From: a bacterium
GTDB taxonomy: Bacteria > Bacillota_I > Bacilli_A > RF39 > UBA660
Assembly (NCBI GenBank): GCA_963641945.1
Contig: CAVIDW010000005.1
Location: 348 to 64,347 of the forward strand
Direction of reading: 5' to 3'
DNA length: 64,000 nucleotides
Part shown: in pieces, positions 10,395-29,180 of the stretch
Position numbering within the stretch: the first letter of the stretch is position 1
Layout of the letters: each line of letters begins with the position of its first letter
Notes under the pieces: model-generated
Databases searched by the model: none
What the model was told of the DNA's origin: nothing
Seen by the model: only the letters and a program-made list of their open reading frames with translations
Position numbers and translations under genes: made by a program

Positions 10395-10429
10395 AGTGGT
10401 AGGAAGTGAAACAAAGTGGTAGAAAGTGG
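10395..10429 (+). promoter_or_regulatory. MraZ operator: four AGTG(G/A) direct repeats at exact 10-bp spacing
   Basis: AGTGG at 10395, AGTGA at 10405, AGTGG at 10415 and AGTGG at 10425. They lie immediately upstream of the mraZ ATG at 10442. Confidence 0.6.
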
Positions 10430-10441
10430 GGTGCTACAATC

Positions 10442-10879: not shown

Positions 10880-11771
10880 AAGTGTGTTATTAGAAGAGGT
10901 AATAAAATATTTAGATGTTAAAACAGGTGGTAAATATATAGATGCTACCGTTGGATATGGTGGTCATTCTAGTGAAATATTAAAAAAAATAGGAAAAGAA
11001 GGGGTTCTTTTCGCCTTTGATCAAGATGATAATGCTATAGAATTTTCTAATTCTAGATTATCTGAAATAGGAAGTAACTTTACAATATTTAAAAGTAATT
11101 TTGTTAATATGAAAAAATATATTAATGAAGAAGTTGATGGTATTTTATTTGATTTAGGTGTATCTAGTCCTCAATTAGATGAGGCTGATCGTGGATTTAG
11201 TTTTCATAAAGACGCTTTACTTGATATGAGAATGGATCAAAGTAATTCTTTGACTGCAGAAATAGTAGTAAACGAATATAGTTATGAGAAACTAGTTGAT
11301 ATATTTTATAGATTTGGTGAAGAAAAGTATGCTAAACCTATAGCTAAAGCTATTATTCAAAATAGACCAATTAGGACTACGTTGGAATTAGTTGAGGTTA
11401 TAAAAAATAGTGTACCAATTAGTTATAGAAATAAAAGTCATCCTGCTAGAAAAGTATTTCAAGCAATAAGAATAGAGGTTAATCATGAACTTGACATATT
11501 AGAAAGTTCTCTTAGAGATGCTTTTAGTTTATTGAAAGTAGGAGGAAGAATTGCTGTAATATCTTTTCATTCATTAGAAGATAAGATAGTTGCTAATGTA
11601 TTTAAAGATTTATGTAGTGATGATGAAAGTGCCAAAAAATTACCAATTGTACCAGATTACTTAAAGGCAAAAGCAAAAAAAATAGTTAAATTAACTCCAA
11701 GTGATATAGAACTTGAGGATAATAATAGAAGTAGAAGTTCAAAATTAAGAGTAATAGAAAGGGTTTTATGA
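10869..11771 (+). CDS. rsmH: 16S rRNA (cytosine1402-N4)-methyltransferase RsmH
   Basis: HKSVLLEEV, DATVGYGGHS, DLGVSSPQLD and SFHSLEDKIV motifs. Second gene of the dcw cluster. Confidence 0.9.
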   Translation: MKHKSVLLEEVIKYLDVKTGGKYIDATVGYGGHSSEILKKIGKEGVLFAFDQDDNAIEFSNSRLSEIGSNFTIFKSNFVNMKKYINEEVDGILFDLGVSSPQLDEADRGFSFHKDALLDMRMDQSNSLTAEIVVNEYSYEKLVDIFYRFGEEKYAKPIAKAIIQNRPIRTTLELVEVIKNSVPISYRNKSHPARKVFQAIRIEVNHELDILESSLRDAFSLLKVGGRIAVISFHSLEDKIVANVFKDLCSDDESAKKLPIVPDYLKAKAKKIVKLTPSDIELEDNNRSRSSKLRVIERVL

Positions 11772-12055
11772 AAAAGAAAAAATATTTAAAATTTAGGGGT
11801 GAAAATTTGATGTTAACAATTATAGTTGTATCTGTAATTGGTATTTTACTTACTAGTTTTATATTACCAGCTAAGTTGCAATCTTATAATTCTGAGCTTC
11901 AAAGATTAAAAACTAAAATTAATAAACAAGAAGAATTAAATGCTAGTATTCAAATGAAAATAAATGAGCTAGCTTCTTTAGATAATGCATTAGAAGTTGC
12001 AGATACCTTTGGTTTGGAGTATAATAATAATAATATTAGAATAATTTCAGAGTAG
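11768..12055 (+). CDS. ftsL: FtsL-like cell division protein
   Basis: Small bitopic protein (TM LMLTIIVVSVIGILLTSFIL followed by a coiled-coil) between rsmH and the class B PBP. ATGA overlap with rsmH. Confidence 0.6.
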   Translation: MKKKKYLKFRGENLMLTIIVVSVIGILLTSFILPAKLQSYNSELQRLKTKINKQEELNASIQMKINELASLDNALEVADTFGLEYNNNNIRIISE

Positions 12056-12065
12056 AGGTGTATAA

Positions 12066-14246: not shown

Positions 14247-14297
14247 TATTGCAACTAACAATATTTATGTGATAAAATTATTTAAGGAGGAATTATT

Positions 14298-14507
14298 ATG
14301 TGGTGGGATATTTTATATGTAACAATTGGTTTAATAGTTGGAATTATAGTTGGATTTTTTATAGCTAAGAAAATATTTCAAAAGCAATTAAAAGAAAATC
14401 CACCAATCAATGAAGAAATGATAAAAACTTTAATGAGAGGTATGGGTAGAAATCCAAGTCAAAAACAAGTTAATCAATTGATGAAACAAATGCAAAAATA
14501 TCAATAG
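14298..14507 (+). CDS. yneF: UPF0154/YneF family small membrane protein
   Basis: 69 aa. TM helix followed by KKIFQKQLKENPPINEEMIKTLMRGMGRNPSQKQVNQLMKQM, the YneF signature. AAGGAGG RBS. Confidence 0.7.
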   Translation: MWWDILYVTIGLIVGIIVGFFIAKKIFQKQLKENPPINEEMIKTLMRGMGRNPSQKQVNQLMKQMQKYQ

Positions 14508-14550
14508 AAATATTGGTATTTTTTTTGTATAATGTTTATGGTGAAATTAT

Positions 14551-15093
14551 ATGAAGTTTTTTAGACATTTACATACTATTAATAAGCATAGATTTATTGT
14601 ATTTAAATTATGTTGTAAGGTGGGGATTCCTTTTAGGGGGCTTGTTCATGATTTATCTAAGTATTCTTTTGAAGAATTTTTTGAGTCTGCTAGGTATTAC
14701 ACAGATGGTAATTATAGTCCAATTATAAGTGCTAAAATAGATAAAGGATACTCTAGAGCTTGGTTACATCATAAAGGAAGAAATAAGCATCATTTTGAGT
14801 ATTGGTATGACGATGTTGCCTCAAATCCAACGCCAATTATTCCATTTAAATACATGCTTGAAATGATATGTGATAGAGTAGCTGCTTCTAAAACATATAA
14901 TAAGAAGGAATATAAGGATTCTGATTCATTAGAATATTTTCTTAGAACCAAAGATAAAATGTGTATGAATAAATGTTTAATTGATTATTTAGAGTGTGTA
15001 TTTACTGAATTATCTAAAAAAGGTGAAGTTGTTTTAAATAGAAAGACTTTAAAACAATTGTATGATGAGTATACCAAAAATGACACTAATTAA
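14551..15093 (+). CDS. Conserved hypothetical protein with an HD-like motif (DUF5662-like by recollection)
   Basis: 180 aa. Motifs LVHDLSKYSFEEF and AWLHHKGRNKHHFEYW. Confidence 0.5.
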   Translation: MKFFRHLHTINKHRFIVFKLCCKVGIPFRGLVHDLSKYSFEEFFESARYYTDGNYSPIISAKIDKGYSRAWLHHKGRNKHHFEYWYDDVASNPTPIIPFKYMLEMICDRVAASKTYNKKEYKDSDSLEYFLRTKDKMCMNKCLIDYLECVFTELSKKGEVVLNRKTLKQLYDEYTKNDTN

Positions 15094-15097
15094 AGTG

Positions 15098-16660
15098 TCA
15101 TTTTTCAAATGTTAATTCATAAATAGATTTATTATTTATAAAATAATATCCTCCTACATATGTATATGAATCTTCAAATTCTTTTATTAATTCATTATTT
15201 TTATAAATTTTTAATGTTTTGTAATCATTTATAAATCCATATCCATTATCAAGATATTTATATAGTGCATCTTTTTCTGTTATTTCTCTAGAATTTAATA
15301 AGTCTATATAGAAATATGTTGGTTTATCACTACTATTATTTATTTGAATTCTATAATAGTTTTTATTTGTTTCTGTACTATCTATATAGTAATTACTAAT
15401 ACTATCATTGTACTTTGGAGTAAATTTATAATATTCATATAGGTCTAAATCATATATTGTAAATGTTATTTTTTTATCTTTTATATTTTCTGTATAGAAG
15501 TATTTTAAATTATATTTATTTGTTTTATTATCATATTCAAATAGGGGATGAAGTCTGTTGTTAACTATTTTTTCTAATTTTTTATTACTTATTAAATATG
15601 TTTTTAAATATTTGTTTGCTTGTGATTCGTTATATGTTGATAGAATATCATTGAAACTACATTCTGGGAATGTAATTATATATAATTGATTATTTATTTC
15701 TTCAAAAGAATAACTCATTATGTCATCTTCATTATCACAATTACCATTAGGTTCAATAGGAATAGTGTAGTCTACTATTTTTTTACCTGGTTTAGTAAAT
15801 ACACTTAATGTTTTATTTTTGGTAAACATAATATAATTATCTGAATCATTATAGTTATCATTATCTATTTGAACAAGTATTTCATTTTTGAAATTTATTA
15901 AACCATATTTTTTATTTTTATAAACTATGTATGTATTATTAGTTATTTCTTTTATATAATTATATGTGTAATCTATAATAACATTTCCTTTATAATCTAT
16001 TAGTCCACATGCTTCATTTTTATGTTTTTCATCAGTATATTTACATGCTGGGATATAATCTTTATTTCTGATTAAATCTCCATCTATTCTACTCATATTA
16101 GTTAATTCAGCTGTTATTTCTTCAGTATATAAATCATAAATAAAATAGTCATGATCATTTGTTTGGAGAATAAAATATTCACAATCTTTATTATTTTCTT
16201 TATGACATATTGGTGTGATAGATAAATATAAATCAGAAATAGTTTCATTTTTAGTATTTATAAATAGATATTTATCTTCATTTTCATCATATTCAATTTT
16301 ATAATTACCATACTTATTATAAGCATAATTATTTTCTGTATTATCAAGGATTGGAGAATCATATATTTTTCCAAATGAACCAACTATATATTTATAATTA
16401 TCATTATCATGATAGTAAATTTCATTATTGATATTATCATAATTTATATATTCATCATATTTTTTTATAAGTTTAAATGATGCTGTATTAAAGTCTTCTT
16501 TTATTTCAGGAATTTTAGGCTTATCACTTGGAATAACTGTAGGTTTATCATTCTCATTCTTTTTGTAAATAATAAACATTATTAAACATGATGTTAATAG
16601 TAATGAAAAAAATATTATTAGTGATATTCTTATAATTTTATTCTTTTTTGACATAGACAC
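15098..16660 (-). CDS. Membrane-anchored WG-repeat (KWG-like) protein
   Basis: N-terminal TM (IIRISLIIFFSLLLTSCLIMFII). Repeated ...CGLIDYKGNVIIDYTYNYI... and ...KYGLINFKNEILV... units. Convergent with the flanking + strand genes. Confidence 0.6.
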   Translation of the reverse strand: MSMSKKNKIIRISLIIFFSLLLTSCLIMFIIYKKNENDKPTVIPSDKPKIPEIKEDFNTASFKLIKKYDEYINYDNINNEIYYHDNDNYKYIVGSFGKIYDSPILDNTENNYAYNKYGNYKIEYDENEDKYLFINTKNETISDLYLSITPICHKENNKDCEYFILQTNDHDYFIYDLYTEEITAELTNMSRIDGDLIRNKDYIPACKYTDEKHKNEACGLIDYKGNVIIDYTYNYIKEITNNTYIVYKNKKYGLINFKNEILVQIDNDNYNDSDNYIMFTKNKTLSVFTKPGKKIVDYTIPIEPNGNCDNEDDIMSYSFEEINNQLYIITFPECSFNDILSTYNESQANKYLKTYLISNKKLEKIVNNRLHPLFEYDNKTNKYNLKYFYTENIKDKKITFTIYDLDLYEYYKFTPKYNDSISNYYIDSTETNKNYYRIQINNSSDKPTYFYIDLLNSREITEKDALYKYLDNGYGFINDYKTLKIYKNNELIKEFEDSYTYVGGYYFINNKSIYELTFEK

Positions 16661-16746
16661 CTCTTTATCTTTTATATTTAAATTATATCATTTTTTCTTT
16701 TAAAAAACACTAAATTAATATATAATTAAATAAGAGGAAATGAAAT

Positions 16747-17613
16747 ATGAAGAAAGTACAAGAATATATAACTTATTTATCACCAGAATTTATTTATGTT
16801 CCTTTTGATAACATAGAATTATTACATATAAAAAAGAGTAAATTGGTTTACAATAATACATTTTTAGGTACTACTAATGATGGAAAAAAAATATTTAGTC
16901 CAGTTAGTGGAAAAATAATTGGTGTTAAGGATATGATTTATAATAATAAAAATTCTAAAGCATTAGTTATTGAAAATGATTTTATAGATAGGCGTGAAAA
17001 ATTAAATCCTACTAGAAATATGAGTAAACATAAAAGAAGTGAAATAGTTGAGTCATTAGAGAAATATGGATTAAACAAAAAAATTAATAGCAAAACTACA
17101 CTCGTAGTTAATTCTTTATATGATAAGAATAATGATTTAAAAGATATGGTTATTAATTATGAATCATATGAAGAAATACTTGAAGCTATTGATGAATTTA
17201 TGGAAATATTTAATATGAAAACTTGTTATATATGTGTTGATAGAGATGACTTAATATCTATTAGTGCATATGAAAAATATATTAATGCATTTTTAAATAT
17301 TTGTTTAGTTCATTCAAATAAGAAATTTAAGGATAGCACATGTGTTTTTTATAGTGTTGAAGAAATACTTGCTATATATAGGGCAATACATTTAGATTAT
17401 ATGTATGACAATACAATTATAACTATTAATAATGGAAGTCCTACTATAGTTAAAGTTAAATTATATACTCCATTATGTGAATTATTAAGAGCACTTAAAA
17501 TAAATGTTAAAGATGCTTTAATATTTATTAATGGAGAACAAAAAGAAAACATATTGAATTTTGTTATTGATTCAACTGTAAGAAGCGTAACAATAAAGGG
17601 TAAACGTGTATGA
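16747..17613 (+). CDS. Hypothetical protein with an RnfC-N-terminal-like barrel-sandwich segment
   Basis: FSPVSGKIIGVKDM...ALVIENDF resembles the RnfC_N hybrid motif. No Fe-S cysteine clusters. ATGA overlap with holA. Confidence 0.4.
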   Translation: MKKVQEYITYLSPEFIYVPFDNIELLHIKKSKLVYNNTFLGTTNDGKKIFSPVSGKIIGVKDMIYNNKNSKALVIENDFIDRREKLNPTRNMSKHKRSEIVESLEKYGLNKKINSKTTLVVNSLYDKNNDLKDMVINYESYEEILEAIDEFMEIFNMKTCYICVDRDDLISISAYEKYINAFLNICLVHSNKKFKDSTCVFYSVEEILAIYRAIHLDYMYDNTIITINNGSPTIVKVKLYTPLCELLRALKINVKDALIFINGEQKENILNFVIDSTVRSVTIKGKRV

Positions 17614-18536
17614 TATATGTATTTTTAGGAAGTGAAATAAGTGTTTTAAAGAAGAAAATAGATGAAACAATATCTTCTTTAAAAATAAATAATATTATTA
17701 ATTATGACTTTAGTGATTCTAGTATGATAGATATTATTAATGAAGTAAATTATGTTGATTTATTTAATGAAAAGAAATTAATAATAGTAAATAATTTTTC
17801 ATTCAAAAAGTTAAAAGAAAAAGATGAAAATATACTAATTAAATATATAGATAATATGAATGATAATGTTATTATATTTAAATGTATTGATGAAAAGTTA
17901 GATGAACGAAAAAAAGTTATTAAATCTTTGAGAGAAAAATGTAAAGTTATAGTGTGTGAAAAACTAGATTACAAGGGTTTGCATGCTTATGTACAAAATG
18001 TATTTAAAGAAAATAAAAAGGAGATAACTTTTAATCAAATTAAAAAAATATTAGATTTATGTGAATATAATACTGATAAAACTATGAGTGAAGTAGAAAA
18101 ATTATTATTATATAAAATGAATAGTAAAAGTATAAGTGATTCTGATATAGATGATGTAGTAGTTAGAAGTACTGATAAAGAATTATATAGTTTTAATGAA
18201 AATGTTTTGAATAGAAAAATAGGTGCATCTTTTGATTCATTAAAAATACTTCTAAATAAAAATGTAGATAGTATAATTATAATAGATAGTTTAGCTAGAC
18301 AATATAGGCTTTTATATCAAATGAAAGTTTTACATGAAGAAATGAGTTATGATGATATGGCTCGTAGTTTAGGAATTAATTCTTTTGTGATTAAAAAAAT
18401 GATTCCTTTTGTTAATATGTATGAGGAAGAAGAAATAATTGATAAATTAATGAAATTAAGTGATATGGATTATGATATTAAAGCTAATGGATATGATAAA
18501 GATAAAGTTCTTGAGATGTTTTTACTTGCTTTATAG
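17610..18536 (+). CDS. holA: DNA polymerase III delta subunit HolA
   Basis: 308 aa. N-terminal IYVFLGSE...LFNEKKLIIV clamp-loader delta layout. The size fits Firmicute YqeN/HolA. Confidence 0.6.
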   Translation: MIYVFLGSEISVLKKKIDETISSLKINNIINYDFSDSSMIDIINEVNYVDLFNEKKLIIVNNFSFKKLKEKDENILIKYIDNMNDNVIIFKCIDEKLDERKKVIKSLREKCKVIVCEKLDYKGLHAYVQNVFKENKKEITFNQIKKILDLCEYNTDKTMSEVEKLLLYKMNSKSISDSDIDDVVVRSTDKELYSFNENVLNRKIGASFDSLKILLNKNVDSIIIIDSLARQYRLLYQMKVLHEEMSYDDMARSLGINSFVIKKMIPFVNMYEEEEIIDKLMKLSDMDYDIKANGYDKDKVLEMFLLAL

Positions 18537-18619
18537 TACATAAACTTTACATTATTTTTAAAAATAATTATGAAGAATAAATTTATTAAAGTATAATTAT
18601 AAAAAGAGGGTGAATATAT

Positions 18620-19612
18620 ATGTTGATTCTTGCAAAAAGTATATTAGGATTAATGATTGGTTTTTTTGTATCTGTAATATTAGGATTAATATTAATACCT
18701 TTACTTAGAAGATTAAATTTTAAACAAAATATAAGTGTGTTTACTGCATTTAGACATGCATATAAGAAAGGAACTCCAACCATTGGTGGATTAATATTTA
18801 TTATACCAACATTGCTTACTATGTTATTTTTGTATCTAAGAGGAAGTTTAGAAATAACACATAGTTTATTGATTATAATATTTGTGTTTGTTTCTTGTGC
18901 GTTACTTGGTCTTACTGATGATCTATTAAAGGTTAAATTTAAGAATAATGATGGGTTAAGCATTTCTCAAAAATTATTTGTTCAAGTTCTAATTGCATTA
19001 ATATTCTTTTATATTTATATGCAAGGAGGAGGAAATACTTATTTAGTTATTACTTCTCTTGGAATAAATATTAATCTTGGATGGATGTATGGATTGTTTA
19101 TTTTATTCTTATTAGTTGGTTCTTCTAATGCAGTTAATTTATCTGATGGATTAGATGGACTTGCTGGAGGACTTTCATTAATTGCTTTTTTAAGTTTTGG
19201 TATTATTACTTGGGGAACTACATGGGTGGAAGGATATCAAGAAATAGCAATATTTTGTTTTATATTAGTTGGTTCATTACTAGGTTTTCTTGTATATAAT
19301 ACACATCCTGCTAAAGTATTTATGGGTGATACAGGATCGTTATCATTAGGGGCAACATTAGCTGCTATAGCCATATTAACTAAACATGAACTATCTTTAG
19401 CTTTAATAGGTGGTGTATTTGTAATTGAAACATTATCTTCAATAATACAATTAATTAGTATAAAGAAATTTAATAAAAAAGTGTTTTTAATGGCTCCACT
19501 TCATCATCATTTTGAAAAACTTGGTTTTGAAGAAACAGATATAGTTAAAGGATTTTTGATAATTGGATTTATGCTTGGTATGATAGCTATATATTATGGA
19601 GTATGGATGTAA
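18620..19612 (+). CDS. mraY: Phospho-N-acetylmuramoyl-pentapeptide transferase MraY
   Basis: KKGTPTIGGLIF, NAVNLSDGLDGLA, MGDTGSLSLG and APLHHHFE motifs. Confidence 0.9.
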   Translation: MLILAKSILGLMIGFFVSVILGLILIPLLRRLNFKQNISVFTAFRHAYKKGTPTIGGLIFIIPTLLTMLFLYLRGSLEITHSLLIIIFVFVSCALLGLTDDLLKVKFKNNDGLSISQKLFVQVLIALIFFYIYMQGGGNTYLVITSLGININLGWMYGLFILFLLVGSSNAVNLSDGLDGLAGGLSLIAFLSFGIITWGTTWVEGYQEIAIFCFILVGSLLGFLVYNTHPAKVFMGDTGSLSLGATLAAIAILTKHELSLALIGGVFVIETLSSIIQLISIKKFNKKVFLMAPLHHHFEKLGFEETDIVKGFLIIGFMLGMIAIYYGVWM

Positions 19613-19616
19613 TAAA

Positions 19617-19638
19617 AAGAACTTAAGTGTTCTTTTTT
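19617..19638 (+). terminator. Hairpin plus T-run after mraY
   Basis: aagaac-ttaagt-gttctt followed by tttt. Confidence 0.45.
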
Positions 19639-19662
19639 AATTTATAAAAAATAAAATTAAGT

Positions 19663-20646
19663 ATGAATAAAAAAATAATAATACTTACAATTATATTATC
19701 TTTAATAGGAATTTTATCTATATATTCTAGTAGTTATATATGGAGTTCATATAAATATGGATATTCATATAAATATTTATTAAATCAAAGTATATTTTTT
19801 ATAATTGGTATTATTATGATGAAAGTATTTTCTAAAATAAATTATAAGATATATAAAAAATATTCTAATATTTTTCTTGGAATTAGTTTTTTATTACTTG
19901 TTATTGTTCTTATACCTGGGATAGGCAGTGTTAGAAATGGAAGTAGAAGTTGGTTTGGATTATTTGGTTTTGGATTTCAACCAAGTGAAGTTTCTAAATT
20001 ATCACTTATTATTTTTACATCAAAATATTTATCAAATAATGATAATTTAAAAAGAAATACAATTAAATTTATATTACCTATATTAATGGTAATTATTGCC
20101 TTTTTTGGTGTAATAATGTTAGAACCGGATTTTGGTACTGGTATGGTTATTGTTTGTTCTTTAATAGGACTTATATTTATTAGTGGAACGGATGTATCGA
20201 TTTTTATTAAAATTGGAATAGTAGGAGTAGTTGGGATAGTAATTCTTGTTTTAATAGCTCCTTATAGATTAGATAGAATAATGTCATTTTTGAATCCATG
20301 GAGCGACCCTCTTGGAAGTGGATTTCAAATGATACAAAGTTTGTATGCAATTGGACCAGGGGGATTACTTGGCTTTGGACTTTTTAATTCAAGGCAAAAG
20401 CATTTTTATCTTCCAGAACCTCAAACGGATTTTATATTTTCAATTATAAGTGAAGAGTTTGGATTTATTGGTTGTAGTTTTTTAATTGGATTATTCATAT
20501 TACTTTTTTATAATATTGCTTGTAAGGCTATAAAGGAAACTGATTTATTTGGTAAATATTTGATATTTGGATTATTATTTTTACTTATGTTTCAAACAAT
20601 ATTAAATTTATGTGTAGTAGTAGGGCTTGTTCCAGTTACTGGGTAA
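19663..20646 (+). CDS. SEDS family protein (FtsW/RodA/SpoVE), 5' portion of a gene interrupted by a mobile element
   Basis: Polytopic protein with SEDS motifs (GSRSWF, FQPSE, PDFGT, LPEPQTDFIFS). It ends abruptly at ...GLVPVTG* where the conserved VTLPFISYGGSS should follow. That continuation is found at 28818. Confidence 0.85.
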   Translation: MNKKIIILTIILSLIGILSIYSSSYIWSSYKYGYSYKYLLNQSIFFIIGIIMMKVFSKINYKIYKKYSNIFLGISFLLLVIVLIPGIGSVRNGSRSWFGLFGFGFQPSEVSKLSLIIFTSKYLSNNDNLKRNTIKFILPILMVIIAFFGVIMLEPDFGTGMVIVCSLIGLIFISGTDVSIFIKIGIVGVVGIVILVLIAPYRLDRIMSFLNPWSDPLGSGFQMIQSLYAIGPGGLLGFGLFNSRQKHFYLPEPQTDFIFSIISEEFGFIGCSFLIGLFILLFYNIACKAIKETDLFGKYLIFGLLFLLMFQTILNLCVVVGLVPVTG

Positions 20647-20880
20647 GTCCTCCATGGTAACTGATAACGACAATTAAGTTTTGCCCTTATTTTAAGGGAT
20701 TGTTAAAGAATTAGATATTGAAATAATTGATAAAAATGAGTTGATTTTCAAAAATAGTAAAAAAATTAATAAATTTTGCAGAAAAAAAATAGGGTAATTT
20801 TGCCATTACCACAAAAAATTAAACAAAGAATAAAAATATATTTTTGATATGAATAATCTATTTTTTGCATTTTTTAATAT

Positions 20881-20906
20881 TTTAAGAAATTATGTGCATT
20901 TTCCTT
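20881..20906 (+). repeat. 26-bp perfect direct repeat, copy 1
   Basis: tttaagaaattatgtgcattttcctt, identical to 21576-21601. Confidence 0.85.
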
Positions 20907-21047
20907 CAATAATTTGCAAAAAAGTCTCAATTTTTTAAACGCTAACGGGAAAATATTCTCGTTTTGTTTATACAAACAAGAATATCAAAATTCAAGCATA
21001 TTGATGTTGAGTATGACTCTTTTCGATTTTTTTAATAAATGAATTTA

Positions 21048-21335
21048 ATTTTCAAGGATGAGACATCGGTGAAATATTTTTTTTACTTCAATAGCCTTGC
21101 CAAAATTCTTAGAAAACTTTTCATTTTTGGATAATTCTTTTAATTTTAATTCTTGTTCATCAATGGTAACTAATTGATCCTCATTAAATACATTAATAAC
21201 TTGTCAATTTGCCTTAGGAGTAAAACATTTTAAATTATTATTTAAATAAGGCAAATAATATTTTCCATAATATTTAATCGAATTGCCATTATTAATTTTT
21301 CTAGAGGTTAAAACTGCAAGAGTATAATTAATTGT
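21048..21335 (-). pseudogene. Degraded gene remnant in the left arm of the element (no start codon, internal TGA)
   Basis: The minus-strand frame reads TINYTLAVLTSRKINNGNSIKYYGKYYLPYLNNNLKCFTPKAN*QVINVFNEDQLVTIDEQELKLKELSKNEKFSKNFGKAIEVKKIFHRCLILEN. The TGA complement is at 21204-21206. Confidence 0.4.
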
Positions 21336-21575
21336 TTATTAACTAGGAGATTTTTCAAAAACAGATTCAATTTTTTATAATCTTTAAATAATAAATGTTT
21401 ATTTTTTCTTTTTTATATTAAAATAATTATTGTTCAAGTAAATCACTTCTTTCTATAATTGTATTGCAATTTAATTATAAACAATTTACTTGAACTTTTT
21501 CTGTGTAAACTTTTTTAATTTTAAAGTGTAAACCATTCTCACTTAAATAATTCCGGTTTCATTTTAGAATAAAAA

Positions 21576-21601
21576 TTTAAGAAATTATGTGCATTTTCCT
21601 T
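21576..21601 (+). repeat. 26-bp perfect direct repeat, copy 2 (about 50 bp upstream of the cargo operon)
   Basis: Identical to 20881-20906. Overlaps a possible TTGCTT -35 element. Confidence 0.85.
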
Positions 21602-21651
21602 GCTTTTTTCTTTAATTTGTATTAGCATTATAAATAATAGGAGGTAAAAAA

Positions 21652-22305
21652 ATGGAAAAGAATAGAACAGGACAAGTTATTGCATTTATAGCATTATTTG
21701 TTGGAATTATTGGTTTATCTGTTGGCTTCGCTGCATTTTCTAATACATTAACAATTAAATCTAATGCAACAGTCACTCCTGATAATAGCATTTTTAATGT
21801 TGACTTTTCTGATGATTCAACAAAAGTTCTTGTTGACCCTGTAACACCTGTAGTTACACCTAATACTTTAGTTGCTACTAATGGAACTATTGATAATACT
21901 GGTAGCCCTACAATTAGTAATATAAGTGCAACTTTTACAGAACCAGGTCAAAAGGCAGTATATACATTTTATGCTTATAATGCTGGTGAACTTGATGCTT
22001 ATTTAAAGAGTATTGCATTTGCAAATGCTACAGGCGGTTCAACTACTAAAGTTTGTACTGCACTTACTGGTACTACTGATTCTTTAGTCCAAGAAGCATG
22101 TAACGGAATTACACTAAGTGTTCAAGTTGGTAGTGAAGCTGCTACTATTGGTAGTGTTTCAAGCATTACAGGACATAAATTAGCAAAAGCGTCATCTGAT
22201 ACTGTAGTAGTTACTTTAGAATATGCTGCAAATTCATCAAGTGCTGATGGCGATTTCACTGTTAGTTTTGGTGATGTAACTTTAAATTATAGCTCAGCTG
22301 AATAA
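21652..22305 (+). CDS. Secreted TasA/camelysin-like protein with a SipW-cognate signal peptide
   Basis: AGGAGG RBS. The signal region ...GLSVGFAAFSNTLTI resembles the TasA ...GGGTWAAFND cleavage context. A later segment, FTEPGQKAVYTFYAYNAGELDAYL, resembles the TasA/peptidase M73 PGD...N.G motif. Confidence 0.6.
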   Translation: MEKNRTGQVIAFIALFVGIIGLSVGFAAFSNTLTIKSNATVTPDNSIFNVDFSDDSTKVLVDPVTPVVTPNTLVATNGTIDNTGSPTISNISATFTEPGQKAVYTFYAYNAGELDAYLKSIAFANATGGSTTKVCTALTGTTDSLVQEACNGITLSVQVGSEAATIGSVSSITGHKLAKASSDTVVVTLEYAANSSSADGDFTVSFGDVTLNYSSAE

Positions 22306-22310
22306 TTAGG

Positions 22311-23453
22311 ATGGTGATAAATGTGAAGAAAAGTTATATTAAATTAATTTGTTTTAGTTCTTTCTTCGGTTTGTTATCTATCTTCAATAGTTTTGTCTAC
22401 AGATTTCTTAGCCAAATAACATTAGATATTTTATTAGCATTTATGTTAATTATTGCCTATATGTTATTTGGTTTTGAAAAAGATAGACATAGATATATGA
22501 AGGAAATTATACTTGAAATATTGATAGTATTAATATCTTTTTTTCTCATATATTATTTATTTGGAATTATAATAGGATTTGCAAAGGCTGGTAATTATTA
22601 TGCTATAAGTTCTATGATTAATATTATTTTTCCAATTATATTTTATATTTTGCTAGGTGAAATATTACGTTATCAGTTAATGGTTAAGTCAAGTGAATCT
22701 AAATATTTGATGTATTTAGTTTGTGTATTGTTTATAATGATAGATTGTACAATTGCTTTTTCCACACATAGTCTTGATAATCGTAGGGAGTTTTTTTTGC
22801 TTATTGCAACTATTGTATTACCTAGTATTTCCAAAAATATATTATGTTCTTTTTTATGTTTTAATTTTGGATTTAAAACTTCAATTATTTATAGACTTGT
22901 TATGGAACTATATTCTTATTTAGTTTATATTGTTCCTAATCCAAATAGTTATCTTTATTCAATAATATTTTTTTTGTTACCTTTTTATATTTTATTTCAT
23001 ATAAAAAGGTTGCTTAATAAAGATAAAGTTAGTAATATAGTTGAAGTAAGAGGAGAAAAAAGAAATATTCGTTTATTATCTTTTCTTCCATTAGGTGTAA
23101 TTACATTTATTTTGGTATATTTTATATCTGGTTATTTTAGATTCTATGCAATTACAATTGCAAGTGGTTCAATGGAACCAAATATATTAAAAGGGGATGT
23201 AGTTATTGTTGATAAAAATTATGATGATTTAAAAGTTGGAGAAGTTTTAGCATATTATTATGATGACAAAGTTATTGTTCATAGAATTTATAAAATAATA
23301 GATACTAATGGTGAGTATTATATTTATACTAAAGGTGATGCAAACAATAATTATGACAATTATAAAATTGATAGGTCCATGGTTATAGGAATTGTTAAAT
23401 TTAATATCCCTTTAATTGGATATCCTACAGTTTTATTAAATGAATATTGGTAA
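22311..23453 (+). CDS. SipW-type (ER/archaeal-type) signal peptidase I fused to an N-terminal polytopic membrane domain of about 260 aa
   Basis: The C-terminal 120 aa contain ASGSMEPNILKGDVVIVD (catalytic Ser), VIVHRIYKI (His) and TKGDANNNYD. The N-terminal part contains about 8 hydrophobic helices. Confidence 0.7.
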   Translation: MVINVKKSYIKLICFSSFFGLLSIFNSFVYRFLSQITLDILLAFMLIIAYMLFGFEKDRHRYMKEIILEILIVLISFFLIYYLFGIIIGFAKAGNYYAISSMINIIFPIIFYILLGEILRYQLMVKSSESKYLMYLVCVLFIMIDCTIAFSTHSLDNRREFFLLIATIVLPSISKNILCSFLCFNFGFKTSIIYRLVMELYSYLVYIVPNPNSYLYSIIFFLLPFYILFHIKRLLNKDKVSNIVEVRGEKRNIRLLSFLPLGVITFILVYFISGYFRFYAITIASGSMEPNILKGDVVIVDKNYDDLKVGEVLAYYYDDKVIVHRIYKIIDTNGEYYIYTKGDANNNYDNYKIDRSMVIGIVKFNIPLIGYPTVLLNEYW

Positions 23454-23465
23454 GGAGTAAAATAA

Positions 23466-24614
23466 ATGGCAACGAAAAAAGAGGCCCCAAAAAAAGTTTT
23501 GAAAACTGAAGAAAAAAAAGTTTTGAAAACTGAAGAAAAAAAAGTTAAATTAAAACGTTTTCATTTTTCCTTTGGCAGAAGATTACTATTTTATTCTGCT
23601 TCGTTTTTGTGTTTGCTTTTCTTGAGCCTTTACTTTATTGCAAATTCTTTTGATTTAGTGTATGAAGAAAAAGTTTCTTTTAAAGAAACTGGAAATATTG
23701 ATTATTCAGTATGTTTAAATAAGAATGATACTTTTGAAACTGAATGCTTAGGAAAAAATAGTAGTTATAATTATGTTGCTAGCCTAATAAATAATATTTC
23801 TATTAAATTTAATTATACTTTTGGTGGTAATAAATTATATTTAGAAAAACCACTTAAATATAAAATTGTAGGCAAGTTAATTATTAAGAATAAAGAAAAT
23901 TCTTATATATATTCTGAAAAAGAATATGTTTTGAAGAATATTTCGAGTGATAATATTATAACTATTGGTTCTTACTATAGTATTGATGACTCAATTAGTA
24001 TTGATTATAGCTACTATAATAATATTGCTAATCAATTTAAATCTGAGTATGGTGTTGATATTGATAGTTATTTAGATGTTTCATTTATTGTTTATAATGA
24101 AGTTGATGCAAAATATAATATTCCTAATTCAAGTAATTTAAATATTAAGATTCCTCTTTCTTTAAAATCAATTAAATTTGAAGTTAGTGAACTTAATAAT
24201 AATTTGGAACAAACTATTATTAAGGAGTATTTGTCTATTTCTGATTATGTTGCATTAATTTTTGGTATTTTATTATTTAGTTTTTCAATATATTATTTTA
24301 TTCGTTTTATTATTTTGATTTTTCCTTTACTAAGAAAGAAAAACATTTATGACAAAATGTTAAGCAAGTATATGAAGGAATATGATCGACTTATTGTAGA
24401 AACTGAATCTCTTCCTATATTTTCTGATTATAATATGCTTAAAATTAAAAGTTTTGAAGAACTACTTGATGTAAGAGATAATTTAAGATTACCTATTATG
24501 TATTATAATGTAACACCGCATAAAAAAGCTTACTTTTATATATTACATGTAAATAATTTGTATGTGTATACATTGAAAGAGGTTGATTTGATTAATGAAA
24601 AAAAGAGTGAATAA
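23466..24614 (+). CDS. Bitopic membrane protein with a large extracytoplasmic domain (DUF5305-like by recollection), accessory to the SipW locus
   Basis: Lys-rich N-terminus with a tandem KKVLKTEE repeat. TM at LLFYSASFLCLLFLSLYFI and a second TM at VALIFGILLFSFSIYYFIRFIILIF. Overlaps the next gene by 20 nt. Confidence 0.5.
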   Translation: MATKKEAPKKVLKTEEKKVLKTEEKKVKLKRFHFSFGRRLLFYSASFLCLLFLSLYFIANSFDLVYEEKVSFKETGNIDYSVCLNKNDTFETECLGKNSSYNYVASLINNISIKFNYTFGGNKLYLEKPLKYKIVGKLIIKNKENSYIYSEKEYVLKNISSDNIITIGSYYSIDDSISIDYSYYNNIANQFKSEYGVDIDSYLDVSFIVYNEVDAKYNIPNSSNLNIKIPLSLKSIKFEVSELNNNLEQTIIKEYLSISDYVALIFGILLFSFSIYYFIRFIILIFPLLRKKNIYDKMLSKYMKEYDRLIVETESLPIFSDYNMLKIKSFEELLDVRDNLRLPIMYYNVTPHKKAYFYILHVNNLYVYTLKEVDLINEKKSE

Positions 24615-26736
24615 TATAATTAATACTAATTATAAAAGAAGAAATATTTTATTGTGTTTTCTTCTTTCTTTTATTGTAATTTGTTTAAGTGTTGGTTTTT
24701 CTTCTTTTCAAAATAACTTAACTATTGATTCAGCCTTAGCCCATGTTAGAGTTGATAAAGATGTGCGTATTATGGGTGTCCATGTTAATAGTGTTAATGA
24801 TGCTATTAGTAATTATGAAAACTATAATGTCAGTAGCATTGAAGGTGGTGCAATATTAAATTCTGCAGATTCATATGTTATATATGATGTTAATGTATAT
24901 AATTTAGGTAATGTTGATGTAGCTATTGGTAGTATAAATATCGATAATGAAAATTTAAAAGTAGAATTTGTTGATTATAATATAGGTGATAAAATCTGTA
25001 ATGATGATAAGTGTAAATTAGGTGTTAATAAAGTTATTAAGGTGAAAATATCTTATGTTGATGGTAAGTTTGATTCTAGTACTTCAAATCAAGGATTTGT
25101 TGTTAATTTTACTTTTGGTGCAGTTTATAGTGCTACTTATGTTGGGTTTGATGATACTACTGGATTTAATACTACTGCAATTGAAGGTATGGAATTTATT
25201 ACATCTTTTACATATGATTCTTCAAAAAGTTTATCTGTTACTATGAATGGAAAAAGTCTTTCAAGTGGTACTGGTTATACTTATAATAATGGTGTATTTA
25301 GTATTGCAAGTGTTAAAGGTGATATTATTATTACTCTTGGAGATATGAGTTTTATGAAAAGTACAATTATTTCTATAGCTACTAGTGGAGGATCTGAGGA
25401 AGATTTAACTTTATATGATTTGGATACAATGACAACAGATGATAAAACAACTACATTTAGTAATATTGCAACCGATAGTGGTATTATTAGAACTAAAGGT
25501 ATAACTGGTAGTAGTAATGTTCTTGTTTATAGAGGTGATATTACTAATAATTATGTAAGTTTTGCAGGTAATATATGGAGAATTATGCAAGTTGATGAAG
25601 ATGGTAATTTAAGACTTATTTTAAATAATTCTATTGGGTCTAGTAAATATAATACTACATCTTCAATATCAAGTGAGGATCAAGCTGAAACTATTTTGGG
25701 ATATGCAAATAGCATTGTAAAAACTACTTTAGATTCATGGTATACATCAAATTTAACTAATTATAGTGAATATATTGTTACAAGTAAATTTTGTAATGAT
25801 TTCACTTATGAAGAAAAAACAAGTACAGGTGCATCAAATAATGTTTACTATTATCAATCTTATTTGAATGTAGGTTCAGATGCTGCTTTGTATTCTCCTT
25901 CTCTTGTTTGTCCTTCTAGTTCTATTTTTACTAGCAATATTGGTTTAATAAGTGTAGAAGAGGCTGTTCTTGCTGGTACTGCTTATAGGGCAAATAATAC
26001 AAGTTATTATTTATATTCTTCTTCTGCTTGGTGGACTTTATCTCCTGCTTATTATGATTCTGCTCAAGGAAATGGTGGTGTATTCTTTGTTACTGCTTCA
26101 GGTGGTGTAACTGACTGGAGTAATAGTTTACTAACTTCAACTTATGGACTTAGACCTGTCATCACAATTGATGGTAATTTACAGTTTACTGGGGACGGAA
26201 CTTTATCTAATCCATATAAGCTATCTGGTGAATCATCAGCAACAATTTCAAAAGTTAATATAACTGATTTATCAACATTAAGTACAGGAAAGTATTATAT
26301 TACTAATACTGGAGGTAATTATAATGTTGATGGTCTTGTATCTTCTATTGTAAGTGGTATAGGACTTGTTGGTACAAATACTGCAACTTTCTCTGATGAT
26401 AAAGAAACTATTCTTAGTACATCTGGTACATTATTTAGTTTTATAAATGGACAGGAAACTACAGATGGTTATTTATATCAAGTTGTTACTGATGATAACA
26501 AATATTTGACAATAGGGGCAACTGATTATAGTGTTACTTTAAGCGATACTCCTGTATATTTGAAGGTAAGTTTAGTTACAAATTCTAGTTATACTGGTAG
26601 AATTACTATTTCAGATGAAACTGGTACAATGTATTTAAACTTTTATGGTGCTAATAATACAAATGATGATAAATTTGCTGGATGGAATGAACTTGATAAA
26701 AATGATTATATGGCGCTTTATGCTGTTACGTCATAG
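24595..26736 (+). CDS. Large (713 aa) secreted surface protein with a SipW-cognate-like signal motif
   Basis: The signal region ...CLSVGFSSFQNNLTI is paralogous to that of 21652. It has an N-terminal TasA-like domain (YVIYDVNVYNLGNVDVAI). The central region contains IWRIMQVDEDGNLRLI ... AWWTLSPAY ... GLRPVITI motifs, typical of Firmicute surface-protein domains. Confidence 0.6.
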   Translation: MKKRVNNIINTNYKRRNILLCFLLSFIVICLSVGFSSFQNNLTIDSALAHVRVDKDVRIMGVHVNSVNDAISNYENYNVSSIEGGAILNSADSYVIYDVNVYNLGNVDVAIGSINIDNENLKVEFVDYNIGDKICNDDKCKLGVNKVIKVKISYVDGKFDSSTSNQGFVVNFTFGAVYSATYVGFDDTTGFNTTAIEGMEFITSFTYDSSKSLSVTMNGKSLSSGTGYTYNNGVFSIASVKGDIIITLGDMSFMKSTIISIATSGGSEEDLTLYDLDTMTTDDKTTTFSNIATDSGIIRTKGITGSSNVLVYRGDITNNYVSFAGNIWRIMQVDEDGNLRLILNNSIGSSKYNTTSSISSEDQAETILGYANSIVKTTLDSWYTSNLTNYSEYIVTSKFCNDFTYEEKTSTGASNNVYYYQSYLNVGSDAALYSPSLVCPSSSIFTSNIGLISVEEAVLAGTAYRANNTSYYLYSSSAWWTLSPAYYDSAQGNGGVFFVTASGGVTDWSNSLLTSTYGLRPVITIDGNLQFTGDGTLSNPYKLSGESSATISKVNITDLSTLSTGKYYITNTGGNYNVDGLVSSIVSGIGLVGTNTATFSDDKETILSTSGTLFSFINGQETTDGYLYQVVTDDNKYLTIGATDYSVTLSDTPVYLKVSLVTNSSYTGRITISDETGTMYLNFYGANNTNDDKFAGWNELDKNDYMALYAVTS

Positions 26737-26775
26737 TAAATTTGTAAGATTATTTAAAAATTAGTTTGAATTTCT

Positions 26776-26820
26776 GATATGAACCTCATTTCTTGAACAT
26801 AGAAATGAGGTTTTTATATG
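26776..26820 (+). repeat. Hairpin repeat copy B (terminator-like) upstream of the recombinase module
   Basis: gatatgaacctcatttct-tgaacat-agaaatgaggtttttatatg. About 85% identical to copy C, including the following ATG. Confidence 0.75.
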
Positions 26821-26955
26821 TCAAAATTAAATTATGAAAAAACAATTAGCTTATTAAAATTACCAGATAATAATGATGAAAATAAAAATGTAAAAATTAA
26901 TAAACATTATTTTTATTTATCAAGAATAGATTTAATAGAGGTGAACTCTCTATGA
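26818..26955 (+). CDS. Small hypothetical protein (45 aa) of the recombinase module
   Basis: MSKLNYEKTI... Its N-terminus is homologous to the ORF starting at 63972 (MTKISCEERI). Overlaps the next small ORF (ATGA). Confidence 0.35.
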   Translation: MSKLNYEKTISLLKLPDNNDENKNVKINKHYFYLSRIDLIEVNSL

Positions 26956-27086
26956 AACGAATTGATATAAATGGAAAAAAAAGAAAATTAAATATACAGT
27001 TTATTTATAAAAAAGATGGAATAAAACTTGAAGATATACTAAAGGAGGGGTATTTATGCTACTTAAGAAATTTAAAAGTGAAATGA
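26952..27086 (+). CDS. Small basic protein (44 aa), loosely TnpW-like; candidate accessory or directionality factor
   Basis: MKRIDINGKKRKLNIQFIYKKDGIKLEDILKEGYL... Preceded by an AGAGGTG RBS. Lies directly upstream of the serine recombinase. Confidence 0.35.
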   Translation: MKRIDINGKKRKLNIQFIYKKDGIKLEDILKEGYLCYLRNLKVK

Positions 27087-27159
27087 TTTACTTTTTCGAT
27101 GTAATAAGGCATCATGAGGTATTAGTATTGCATAAATTAAATTTGGAGGGACTTTATTA

Positions 27160-28731
27160 ATGGAATATATTTGTGGCGCTTATGATAGATTATCTGATGC
27201 TGACAATAAAATTGATGAAAGTTCTTCTATTCAAAGCCAAAAAATTATAATTGATTCTTTTGCTAAATTTAATAATCTAAAAATATATAAACATTATGTA
27301 GATGATGGATACTCTGGAGGAAATTTTGATAGACCTGGATTTCAAGAAATGATAAGTGATATTGAAAAAGGAAAAATTAATTGTGTTATTACAAAAGACC
27401 TATCTCGTTTAGGTCGTGAAATGTATAAAACTGGTAAATATATAGAAGAATATTTTCTAGAAAAAGGCATTAGATATATTGCAATTAATGATTCCTATGA
27501 TTCTAATATAGGGGATTCTATGTTAGGAATTAGATTAAGTGTTAATGATTTATATTTAAGAGATGTTTCTAAAAAGGTTAAGACTTCTCTTCGTGCTAAA
27601 CAGAATAGAGGAGATTATATAGGATCTTTTCCATTATATGGATATAAAAAAGATCCTAATGATAGACATAAATTAATTGTTGATGAAGATGTTAGACATA
27701 TTGTTGAGTTAATTTATGATTTAGCACTAGAAGGTAAATCAGCCAATAAGATAGCAGAACATCTAACATTAAAGAAAATACCTATTCCAATTGTTTATAA
27801 AGGAGATCCTAGAGCAAAAGATGTAGTTGAAAATGATGGTTATGGTATATGGAAAAGACAAACTATCAAAGGAATTTTAACTAATCAAATGTATATTGGT
27901 AATATGGTTCAAAATACACATAATAAGATAAGCTATAACTCTAAAAAACTAAGAAAAACTGCAGAAGATGAATTAATTATTGTTGAAGGTACACATGAAG
28001 GTATAATATCCAAAGAAATATTTGAAAAAGTACAAGAAATAATTAATAGTAAAACCAAGACAAGAGTTACAAGTCGTCAATTAGAATATTTACTAGGTGG
28101 TTTACTTATATGTAGGGAATGTGGTCGCTCTATAAGAATTGGTGAAGATGTTATTAAATCTGGCATAAGGCATTATACACAGTGTAATTTATATACAAGA
28201 AAAGGGAAATTTGGAGTATGTTCATCACATAGAATTAATTACGATTGGCTAGAAGAAGATGTTATTGAATATTTACAAGAAGTGTGTAAAAAATTTTGTA
28301 AATATTATGATATAAATAATTTAGCTGATAATTCTAAAAATATTGTTATTAAAAATATTAATGAAATTAAAAAGAAAATTGAAAGATTTGAAGTTTTATT
28401 AAGTTCTCATCAAACAACCATTGATAATTTATATATTGATAAAGTTAAGGGATTAGTTGATGAAGAAATGTATAAAAGAATCTATGAAAAAACAAAAACT
28501 GAAATAACTAAAATAAATCATGAATTAGAGATTTTAAATAAAAGACTTTTAGCTAATCAAAATGAAAAGTCTAGTACAAGCTTTAATAGATGTAAAAGTG
28601 CTGTTATGGATTATATGTCTTTAAAGAATCCAACTAAAGAACAAATTCAAAGATTGGTAAAAAAGATTGAGATTGACAAAGATAAAAAAGTATATGTGTA
28701 TTTAAAATTTCCAGAATTAGAAGAGATTTAA
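27160..28731 (+). CDS. Large serine recombinase (523 aa)
   Basis: Resolvase catalytic domain: YDRLSDAD (nucleophile Ser), DDGYSGGNFDRPGFQEM, KDLSRLGRE. Recombinase domain. Zinc ribbon: CRECGRS...C...C. C-terminal coiled-coil. GGAGGG RBS. Confidence 0.9.
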   Translation: MEYICGAYDRLSDADNKIDESSSIQSQKIIIDSFAKFNNLKIYKHYVDDGYSGGNFDRPGFQEMISDIEKGKINCVITKDLSRLGREMYKTGKYIEEYFLEKGIRYIAINDSYDSNIGDSMLGIRLSVNDLYLRDVSKKVKTSLRAKQNRGDYIGSFPLYGYKKDPNDRHKLIVDEDVRHIVELIYDLALEGKSANKIAEHLTLKKIPIPIVYKGDPRAKDVVENDGYGIWKRQTIKGILTNQMYIGNMVQNTHNKISYNSKKLRKTAEDELIIVEGTHEGIISKEIFEKVQEIINSKTKTRVTSRQLEYLLGGLLICRECGRSIRIGEDVIKSGIRHYTQCNLYTRKGKFGVCSSHRINYDWLEEDVIEYLQEVCKKFCKYYDINNLADNSKNIVIKNINEIKKKIERFEVLLSSHQTTIDNLYIDKVKGLVDEEMYKRIYEKTKTEITKINHELEILNKRLLANQNEKSSTSFNRCKSAVMDYMSLKNPTKEQIQRLVKKIEIDKDKKVYVYLKFPELEEI

Positions 28732-28817
28732 ATTTAAGTTATTTGGAAGTACTACCTTTAATTTTCAGTTATTTCGTAAGTGTAACCATGTAAAAACAGT
28801 TATTATGGCAATCTATG

Positions 28818-28910
28818 AGGTGTCACTCTTCCTTTTATAAGTTATGGTGGTTCATCACTTCTTGTTAGTATGGCAAGCATTGGAATAATACTTAATATTG
28901 GTGGTAAATA
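28818..28910 (+). pseudogene. 3' fragment of the split SEDS gene, carrying a +1 frameshift
   Basis: ggt gtc act ctt cct ttt ata agt tat ggt ggt tca tca ctt translates to GVTLPFISYGGSSL. An extra c (cttCctt at about 28860) then shifts the frame. The expected tail LVSMASIGIILNIGGK* is in the +1 frame. Confidence 0.8.
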
Positions 28911-29180
28911 ATATATCCATTGTATAAAATTAAAAAATGAAATAATTGTTGAAGCAAAAGAAGATTATCAGTTGTATAATGATTTACTTAATAATTTTAA
29001 AAGTCAGTATGATGTTTCTAATGATGGACTTTTAATTGTTTCTTTTGTTATTGATAATAATATTGAAAGTGATTTAATTGATAGAAAAATAAATAAAGAA
29101 AGTACTATTGAATTAAATATTCCATTTTATAGCAGTATATAATTAATGTAGAAGTAATTCTGCATTTTTTAATAATTGTA

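Follow-up and report, generated by a model that had tools for sequence, protein, structure and literature searches.

A peptidoglycan polymerase gene of the SEDS (shape, elongation, division and sporulation) family was found to be split in the window, that is, the whole 64,000-nucleotide stretch analyzed here (contig CAVIDW010000005.1 of assembly GCA_963641945.1, forward-strand positions 348 to 64,347), which derives from a bacterium of GTDB lineage Bacilli_A, RF39, UBA660. The 5' part of the gene (19663..20642, + strand) and its 3' part (28821..28911, + strand) are separated by a non-phage intervening element on the same strand (20643..28820), which was delimited by its junctions and by colinearity with intact genes and which carries its own large serine recombinase (LSR). 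Comparison of occupied and empty sites showed an insertion that is site-specific and attributable to this LSR, with crossover at the GG of an invariant glycine codon. We tentatively interpret the arrangement as a probably reversible and possibly sporulation-linked split of the SEDS gene.

The 327-aa open reading frame (ORF) at 19663-20646 terminates with ...GLVPVTG*, as stated in the preliminary description of this DNA. Its host-derived portion comprises residues 1-326 plus GG, the first two bases of Gly327; the junction reads GGG TAA and places the stop at 20646. The missing C-terminus, GVTLPFISYGGSSLLVSMASIGIILNIGGK*, is encoded further along that strand, beginning with the GGT codon at 28819-28821 and ending with the stop codon at 28909-28911, so that the downstream continuation proposed earlier was recovered, with its start at 28819 and not at 28818. 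The 3' part supplies the third base of Gly327, residues 328-356 and the stop codon, and it covers the final hydrophobic helix. When 19663..20642 was joined in silico to the sequence from 28821 onward, the frame was kept and a 356-aa protein resulted, which matched PF01098 with 354 bits over residues 5-353 of 356 (profile positions 4-350 of 356). An in-frame join was possible with a GG crossover only, in agreement with the join at the shared GG that had been suggested before. The insert amounts to 8,178 bp with the GG core counted once. The cut deletes the most conserved SEDS motif, GVTLPFxSYGGSS, together with the last transmembrane helix; the elements append 0-8 unrelated residues to the truncated SEDS proteins and provide no substitute helix.

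Uninterrupted orthologues with 94% (L001) and 96% (L004) identity crossed the junction with zero bases gained or lost, and the alignment of the joined ORF to these orthologues, which had been called for as a check, was colinear throughout. The synteny upstream of the L001 gene was identical to that in the window (mraZ-rsmH-ftsL-PBP...holA-mraY, where PBP denotes a penicillin-binding protein). The left attachment site (attL) of the window recurred in L087 and L088 and the right one (attR) in L002 and L003, all from other assemblies and samples. Because both junctions recur in independent assemblies, the split is not an assembly chimera. An exact look-up of the joined 356-aa protein in the protein collection returned no entry, and no empty site of the same strain was found.

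The gene had been introduced as a spoVE/ftsW-position gene and treated as spoVE. It does follow mraY. The joined protein scored 378.2 bits with the NCBIfam FtsW equivalog (TIGR02614), over the cut-off of 337.5, and 394.5 bits with the SpoVE model (TIGR02615), the top raw score of the NCBIfam models but under the cut-off of 448.8; the RodA model gave 311.5 bits, under its cut-off. By curated cut-offs the joined protein is thus an FtsW, the raw score tilting slightly to SpoVE, and homologues are named FtsW in the source databases. Nor is the neighborhood that of a compact division and cell wall (dcw) cluster. The cluster is fragmented over 10406-20646 (mraZ-rsmH-ftsL-PBP, three unrelated genes plus holA, then mraY-SEDS); murG and divIB were found at 50287-52042, about 21 kb beyond the SEDS gene with the element subtracted, and murD, murE and murF were not seen within the window. 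The stretch that separates mraY from the SEDS start codon (19613-19662) contains AAGAAC-ttaagt-GTTCTT with a T run after it, a terminator-like hairpin, and the SEDS start codon lacks an obvious ribosome-binding site.

The closest SEDS homologues came from gut metagenome-assembled genomes (MAGs) labeled Bacilli, Tenericutes, Mycoplasmatota or 'Clostridium sp.'; a homologue from Candidatus Fimihabitans, which is assigned to order RF39, showed 59% identity. From these homologues the host, too, would be an RF39-like, uncultured gut bacterium. Apart from the insertions, the gene is very strongly conserved over the lineage. Homologues of 336-341 aa were considered as truncated alleles and rejected, being full length with the start codon called later. 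Two SEDS matches in one MAG (L055/L057) were likewise rejected as paralogues; they represent one locus assembled twice (99.96% identical).

The recombinase and a family of elements at one codon

The LSR gene (27160..28731, + strand) encodes 523 aa and ends 89 bp before the right junction, close to the 87 bp given in the preliminary description. The protein contains Resolvase (PF00239, 75.4 bits, residues 7-152), Recombinase (PF07508, 78.5 bits) and Zn_ribbon_recom (PF13408, 44.9 bits) domains, the catalytic motif with the serine nucleophile reading YDRLSDAD, and it matched PHROG 95 'integrase' with 324 bits. The NCBIfam XisF model matched weakly (101 bits, cut-off 375). No other protein of the element matched a PHROG, and structural, packaging or lysis genes were not found in it. 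Phage records held nothing more than 40% identical, and a scan of IMG/VR with the LSR yielded none above 42%; the scan of IMG/VR with the attP pattern gave zero matches.

At attL (20615..20670) the host half-site ...CCAGTTACT is followed by the GG core (20641-20642) and the element arm GTAAGTCCTCCATGGTAACTGATAACG; the same junction occurs in L087, L088 and L041. At attR (28770..28845) the element arm ...CAGTTATTATGGCAATCTATGA precedes the GG core (28819-28820) and the host half-site TGTCACTCTTCC.... The two sites have only GG(G/T) in common and form no long direct repeats; the 2-bp crossover is central to imperfect dyads. The sequence across the restored site, attB, is …CCAGTTACTGGTGTCACTCTTCC… and contains the dyad GTnAC-nGG-nGTnAC, i.e. 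the codons for V-T-G-V-T within P-V-T-G-V-T. In 75 intact genes the site conformed to CCnGTnACnGGnGTnACnYTnCCnTTY, with two invariant G residues central in the dyad. The reconstructed attP has the arms CAGTTATTATGG and CCATGGTAACTG, each about 10 nt from the GG, and the junction sequence …GGCAATCTATGAGGGTAAGTCCTCC….

Two small ORFs precede the LSR gene on the + strand. The first (26952..27086) encodes a basic 44-aa protein, MKRIDINGKKRKLNIQFIYKKDGIKLEDILKEGYLCYLRNLKVK, and an ORF of this kind was always found just upstream of the LSR among the family elements described below; its product might be a directionality factor. The second (27056..27160) overlaps the LSR start with its stop codon (TAATG) and is called as a 57-aa gene in related elements.

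Insertion at this codon is not confined to the window. A genome survey covered the 80 best species-representative SEDS loci (547 genome hits), and in 6 of these 80 (L041, L080, L025, L015, L051 and L062) the SEDS match stopped at residue 326/327. L041, on a 317-kb contig with 78% host identity, carries an element of the same length class, with ends that hardly differ from those in the window and an LSR of 94% identity; the cargo, a sortase and a 1,278-aa surface protein, is unlike that of the window's element. In L080 the LSR was 53% identical and accompanied by about 10 kb of metabolic cargo, whereas L025 has a left end of a third type. The contigs of L015, L051 and L062, like that of L098, end exactly at the GG core.

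A metagenome scan with the LSR retrieved relatives from 94% down to 31% identical. Nearly all LSRs of at least 53% identity (about 20 metagenome contigs) are followed 85-115 bp later by an FtsW 3' fragment that begins at the same codon; the exceptions, where DNA was available, were L089, L091, L109 and L098. LSRs of 40% identity or less had no such fragment after them. Among the exceptions, L091 (9736-11346) has an LSR that is intact and 83% identical, but the place of the FtsW 3' fragment is taken by 1.6 kb of DNA that is rich in AT and free of ORFs; this stretch contains no recognizable P' arm and bears a loose likeness to the left-end module. L109 was considered as an attP junction or circle and rejected. 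The element occupying L109:1-21575 is of a conjugative type and has the 53% identical LSR at its end. It encodes a DNA methylase and a type IV coupling protein besides surface proteins of the Big_2/cohesin kind, and it abuts relA/spoT and cysS instead of ftsW.

The length of family members varied between 3.4 kb and more than 10 kb. L103, the shortest, holds a queuosine-salvage gene, the small ORF, the LSR and little else. In L176 (also L177-L179) a RelB/ParE toxin-antitoxin pair at 9027-9621 lies directly upstream of the small ORF and the LSR. L087, from the window's own species, agrees with the window in the truncated gene and over the initial ~180 bp of the element, beyond which the cargo differs. 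The constants are the left ~180 bp, the basic ORF of 44-47 aa (81 aa in the 53% clade), the spacer with the short upstream ORF, and the LSR. These comparisons showed a family consisting of an LSR and its 44-aa partner ORF with interchangeable cargo, directed at one target codon in many species. The earlier designation as a skin-like element stands in so far as a site-specific LSR element is concerned, with the same recombinase and target combined with different cargo and with precise excision that would rebuild the gene; it is not supported for the host gene, which by curated cut-offs scores as FtsW and not as SpoVE.

Probable reversibility of the split and its possible explanations

Assembly ran without a break across the split gene in contigs that measure 63-317 kb (the window, L041, L101, L103, L105 and L108). 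Most cells of the populations concerned hence have the split genotype, and its carriers are viable, which argues well that the SEDS gene is dispensable for their vegetative growth. At the same time, both parts of the gene were well preserved. All 3' fragments beside an intact LSR kept the frame, the motif GVTLPF(I/L)SYGGSS and the normal stop, in at least 12 host-specific variants, and all 5' parts in carriers were single uninterrupted matches.

A different organization was seen in islands with a dead or missing LSR: an intact SEDS gene, the island, and a second 3' copy preceded by the right arm of the element. At L021 (11063-13355) two LSR-less cassettes follow an intact ftsW, giving three 3' copies. 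In L018 and L031 the LSR is absent, the gene is intact, and the island after it is followed by a 3' duplicate of greater length. In L045 the LSR is absent and the leftover 3' copy degenerate, and in L116 the LSR is a pseudogene and the leftover 3' copy frameshifted. A split gene together with a dead or absent LSR occurred at none of the loci examined. This relation between the state of the LSR and the state of the gene favors a reversible split of a useful gene over the knockout of a useless one. It argues well for the occurrence of excision, which would rebuild the gene exactly, and is consistent with continued selection on the gene in carriers, excision making the split tolerable. As one possibility, the restored arrays might have arisen from repair of abortive attL cleavage using the excised sister copy.

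A potential excision product was encountered in sample ERZ808252. At L089:4170-4283, which belongs to a contig with a 94% identical LSR, the right end of the element is followed by GG|GTAAGTCCTCCGTG and not by FtsW. GTAAGTCCTCCGTG represents the first 14 nt of an L041-type left end, i.e. the junction is of attP type, and suggests an excised circle. The contig breaks at the GG core fit mixed states within a sample and fit strain mixtures equally.

The link to sporulation was considered in light of the neighboring genes. As announced in the preliminary description, spoIIIAH-, gerE-, gerM- and ylbD-like genes are present: a SpoIIIAH-like gene (146-640; 29 bits, just under the Pfam cut-off), a GerE-type gene for 68 aa (about 701-907), a Germane/GerM gene (918-1877) and a YlbD_coat gene (52079-52426). 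Furthermore, a Spore_YunB gene and a YutD-like gene are located in the host flank of a related carrier (the L176 group). SpoIIIAH-like and GerM genes that stand alone, as in the window, conform to what has been reported for spore-forming Erysipelotrichia, which keep only SpoIIIAH, SpoIIQ and GerM, and a reduced sporulation gene set including spoIIIAH is predicted to be retained in RF39 genomes.

On this basis the following sequence of events can be proposed. Recombination of attL with attR by the LSR would release a circle and rebuild the 356-aa gene exactly. If the SEDS protein were unneeded in vegetative growth yet still important, two intact halves would be kept for as long as the recombinase works. 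The occasion for excision would be the sporulation mother cell, which is terminally differentiating and in which the dcw SEDS protein would take a SpoVE-like part in making the cortex. In the germ line (forespore and spore) the element would be retained, as for skin, SPbeta and gin. The dcw SEDS gene of RF39-like gut Bacilli would then be a programmed-rearrangement gene, split in the germ line and rebuilt in the terminal sporulating mother cell; put in this general form the proposal is conceivable, though we hold it with some doubt. Its least secure step among the three inferred is excision in the mother cell, for which the sporulation-type genes of the host provide a hint.

Several observations weigh against a sporulation-linked, reversible split. 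The failure of the joined protein to reach the SpoVE cut-off while passing that for FtsW has been mentioned. The spoIIIAA-AG operon is not upstream of the SpoIIIAH-like gene, and Spo0A, sporulation sigma factors and further SEDS genes were not seen in the 64 kb plus flanks, the sole DNA covered. Promoter-like matches of the sigma-70 type were not above those in shuffled sequence, and the conserved spacer, when read by eye, contained no recognizable sigma-E or sigma-K motif; only a sigma-70-like TTGCTT-17-TAACAT was read there in relatives. The attP evidence from L089 is confined to the last 14 nt of a contig, and a tandem copy could have produced it as well. The relation between LSR and gene was seen in few independent cases, partly shaped by the way the loci were collected. 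In the window's species, intact 357-aa alleles were present on 74, 57 and 55 contigs and the 327-aa allele on 2; overall, contigs with the intact allele numbered in the hundreds and those with the split allele 2-3. The closest solved structure to the catalytic domain is TnpX of the mobilizable transposon Tn4451 (2mhc, 5e-28), the match to SprA of SPbeta being more distant (6e-15). Some variants include a RelB/ParE addiction module, and the element to which the 53% identical LSR of L109 belongs encodes a type IV coupling protein and is inserted elsewhere than in ftsW. The TnpX likeness, the addiction module and the L109 element are all hallmarks of ordinary mobile DNA.

These last points lead to the most serious competing explanation, a plain mobile insertion, which we likewise consider conceivable but doubtful. 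According to it, the site was chosen for its invariant VTGVT dyad, the SEDS protein is redundant or dispensable, whether through another FtsW/RodA or the class A PBP or through relaxed selection on the wall in a wall-reducing lineage, excision serves transfer only, and carriers go without the function of the gene. LSR elements commonly integrate within non-essential genes. The rarity of the insertion within the window's species, the TnpX-like catalytic domain and the toxin-antitoxin pair agree with such an element, and the occurrence of a related LSR on a conjugative-type element at another site keeps an ordinary mobile-element lifestyle a live alternative. A class A PBP with Transgly and Transpeptidase matches is encoded at 36275-39082. 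RF39 and its sister orders have repeatedly reduced their peptidoglycan genes, so that relaxed selection on the SEDS gene is conceivable. A plain insertion does not account well for the finding that none of about 20 occupied sites had decayed halves, while redundant 3' copies in restored arrays do decay, nor for the lack of split genes with a dead or absent LSR among the loci examined or for the very strong conservation of the gene elsewhere in the lineage. It is these features that incline us to a reversible split of a gene still in use.

Retention of function by the truncated 326-aa protein, in which case the insertion would be neutral and neither excision nor redundancy would be required, appears quite improbable. 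Carriers are the majority genotype in several populations and the 5' ORF is intact in all of them, as would be expected for a working truncate. However, the GVTLPFxSYGGSS motif and the last hydrophobic helix are lost, the few unrelated residues that replace them form no new helix, and the orphan 3' fragments would have no reason for staying intact. In Escherichia coli FtsW, mutagenesis of the equivalent region in loop 9/10 (P368) reportedly impairs function.

It appears very improbable that the element acts as a vegetative switch resembling active lysogeny, with excision and re-integration in growing cells toggling the SEDS gene and with no link to sporulation. A TnpX-like catalytic domain may permit both reaction directions without strict control, the attP-type junction in L089 is in line with such toggling, and the contig breaks at the GG core (L015, L051, L062 and L098) would suggest mixed occupied and empty states; yet strain mixtures, or one element in several genomes, explain these breaks equally well. 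An assembly or binning artefact that wrongly joined gene halves and element can be dismissed, for although the source is a metagenome-derived assembly and a related MAG breaks contigs inside the element, the same attL and attR were recovered from independent assemblies and samples and the same architecture from many species on long contigs.

Cargo of the element and other genes of the window

The left end of the element (20643..20822, ~180 bp) contains the P' arm, the hairpin CCCTTA-ttt-TAAGGG and a GGTAATtttgccATTACC repeat, and this module is common to elements with other cargo. It is followed by an ORF-free stretch (20875..21601) bounded by 32-nt direct repeats (20875-20906 and 21570-21601, 94% identical), which flank 695 bp of ORF-free DNA. 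From the second copy it is 50 bp to the cargo operon downstream, and the pair might represent either a promoter/operator that was duplicated or what is left of a lost cassette.

The cargo operon is encoded on the + strand and starts with a gene for a 217-aa secreted protein without family match (21652..22305), in which the signal-peptide motif LSVGFAAFSNTLTI was recognized. Next come genes for a multi-pass membrane protein (22311..23453) with a C-terminal domain of SipW/archaeal-type signal peptidase I (TIGR02228, 83.8 bits; Peptidase_S24/S26), for a DUF5305 protein, so assigned by family match (23466..24614), and for a 713-aa secreted protein of no known family (24595..26736). The unusual motif LSVGFAAFSNTLTI occurs in both the 217-aa and the 713-aa protein. 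The DUF5305 gene has a perfect 24-nt tandem repeat at 23489-23536, by which KKVLKTEE is encoded twice. A terminator-like hairpin (26781..26813, + strand) ends the operon. Judging from the signal peptidase domain, the two LSVGFAAFSNTLTI-type proteins and the DUF5305 protein, the cargo reads as a secretion module. An Rfam scan of the element and its flanks gave zero matches.

The G+C content of the window is 20-30%. Genes for a hybrid histidine kinase and a small receiver-like protein are situated just upstream of the SpoIIIAH-GerE-GerM group (146-1877), as seen together with L084. The YlbD-like gene is followed downstream by a gene (52779-53261) whose product resembles type IV pilins and has a methylation motif at its N-terminus. 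Two genes for AMP-dependent ligases (46201-47910 and 47944-49653) are tandem duplicates, 98% identical save for the last ~25 residues, and each copy adjoins a gene for a PlsC-like acyltransferase (45612-46217 and 49653-50252). The secreted proteins encoded at 39702-40115 and 40190-41509 have a near-identical C-terminal part of about 90 aa (…WNISDEEMTCEELLGSNLTKIV…DFDLTCL) with a hydrophobic stretch and were assigned to no family. Two window proteins that were looked up for wider context returned zero records.

Relation to known gene-intervening elements

The element interrupts a gene, its removal would restore the frame, and the LSR gene lies beside an att site; with these structural features it is a candidate member of the class of gene-intervening elements. 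New here are the target gene and the host lineage. It had been stated before that spoVE was not known as a target of this kind, and this statement held: literature searches yielded no paper linking spoVE or ftsW with intervening elements or serine recombinases, and the supplement of PMC10868615 has zero entries for ftsW, spoVE or rodA.

If excision were developmental, a cell-wall polymerase would join sigK, spsM, spoVFB, spoVR and gerE as genes rebuilt during sporulation. The spoVE/ftsW gene would be a previously undescribed target of skin-type elements, the system would be the first of its kind in reduced-genome, uncultured relatives of the Mollicutes, and it would provide indirect genetic evidence of a sporulation programme and a dedicated SEDS protein in uncultured RF39-type gut bacteria. 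Whatever the biology, the elements constitute a natural serine integrase family with attB, attP, a GG crossover and a candidate small partner, which is useful for integrase engineering. The 3' end of ftsW is a hot spot for islands with surface-protein, secretion, salvage and toxin-antitoxin cargo, and annotation pipelines will label such split genes truncated FtsW pseudogenes.

The skin element in sigK of Bacillus subtilis, Clostridioides difficile and others (recombinases SpoIVCA and CD1231) offers the classical comparison. There, too, a conserved gene is divided by an LSR element, its ORF is made whole again by precise excision and the integrated form is inherited; moreover, skin elements have the recombinase in common and not the cargo, the same pattern as in the FtsW-site family. 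The target of skin is a sigma factor and here a SEDS polymerase, the host here belongs to the uncultured RF39-like Bacilli, and developmental control and mother-cell expression of the target are hypotheses here. The LSR of the FtsW-site family is only distantly related to the LSRs of sporulation elements, SprA included.

The nearest counterpart is gin, the element in gerE of Bacillus cereus ATCC 10987, which is non-phage and has the serine recombinase GirC and the directionality factor GirX (PMC5595907). Like gin, the window element combines an LSR with a small ORF beside it. Unlike the 28.6-kb gin with its three recombinase genes, the present elements span 3.4 to more than 10 kb and have a single LSR, and whereas the function of GirX has been demonstrated, the role of the 44-aa ORF is inferred only. 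SPbeta in spsM (SprA/SprB), vfbin in spoVFB and vrin in spoVR also represent LSR-mediated splits of mother-cell sporulation genes that are undone during sporulation. These three are prophages or their remnants, whereas the FtsW-site family is without phage genes or close phage relatives.

Outside sporulation, the comK prophage of Listeria (A118/phi10403S) uses a serine integrase to occupy a non-essential gene, and its excision restores the gene in a particular state ('active lysogeny'). In contrast to the window element, it is a phage, and it occupies a regulatory gene in a host that forms no spores; none of the present data show the window element leaving the gene without being lost. Tn4451 and Tn4453 with TnpX, and other mobilizable or conjugative elements driven by an LSR, are similar in being small and non-phage, in carrying accessory cargo and in passing through a circular intermediate. 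Elements with TnpX use many GA-containing sites for insertion, whereas the FtsW-site family is essentially confined to one codon of one gene. Finally, XisF excises the fdxN element of heterocyst-forming cyanobacteria from a gene in a terminally differentiated cell; the two systems thus share an LSR and, if the proposal made here applies, the setting of a terminal cell, and they differ in phylum, target and developmental programme.

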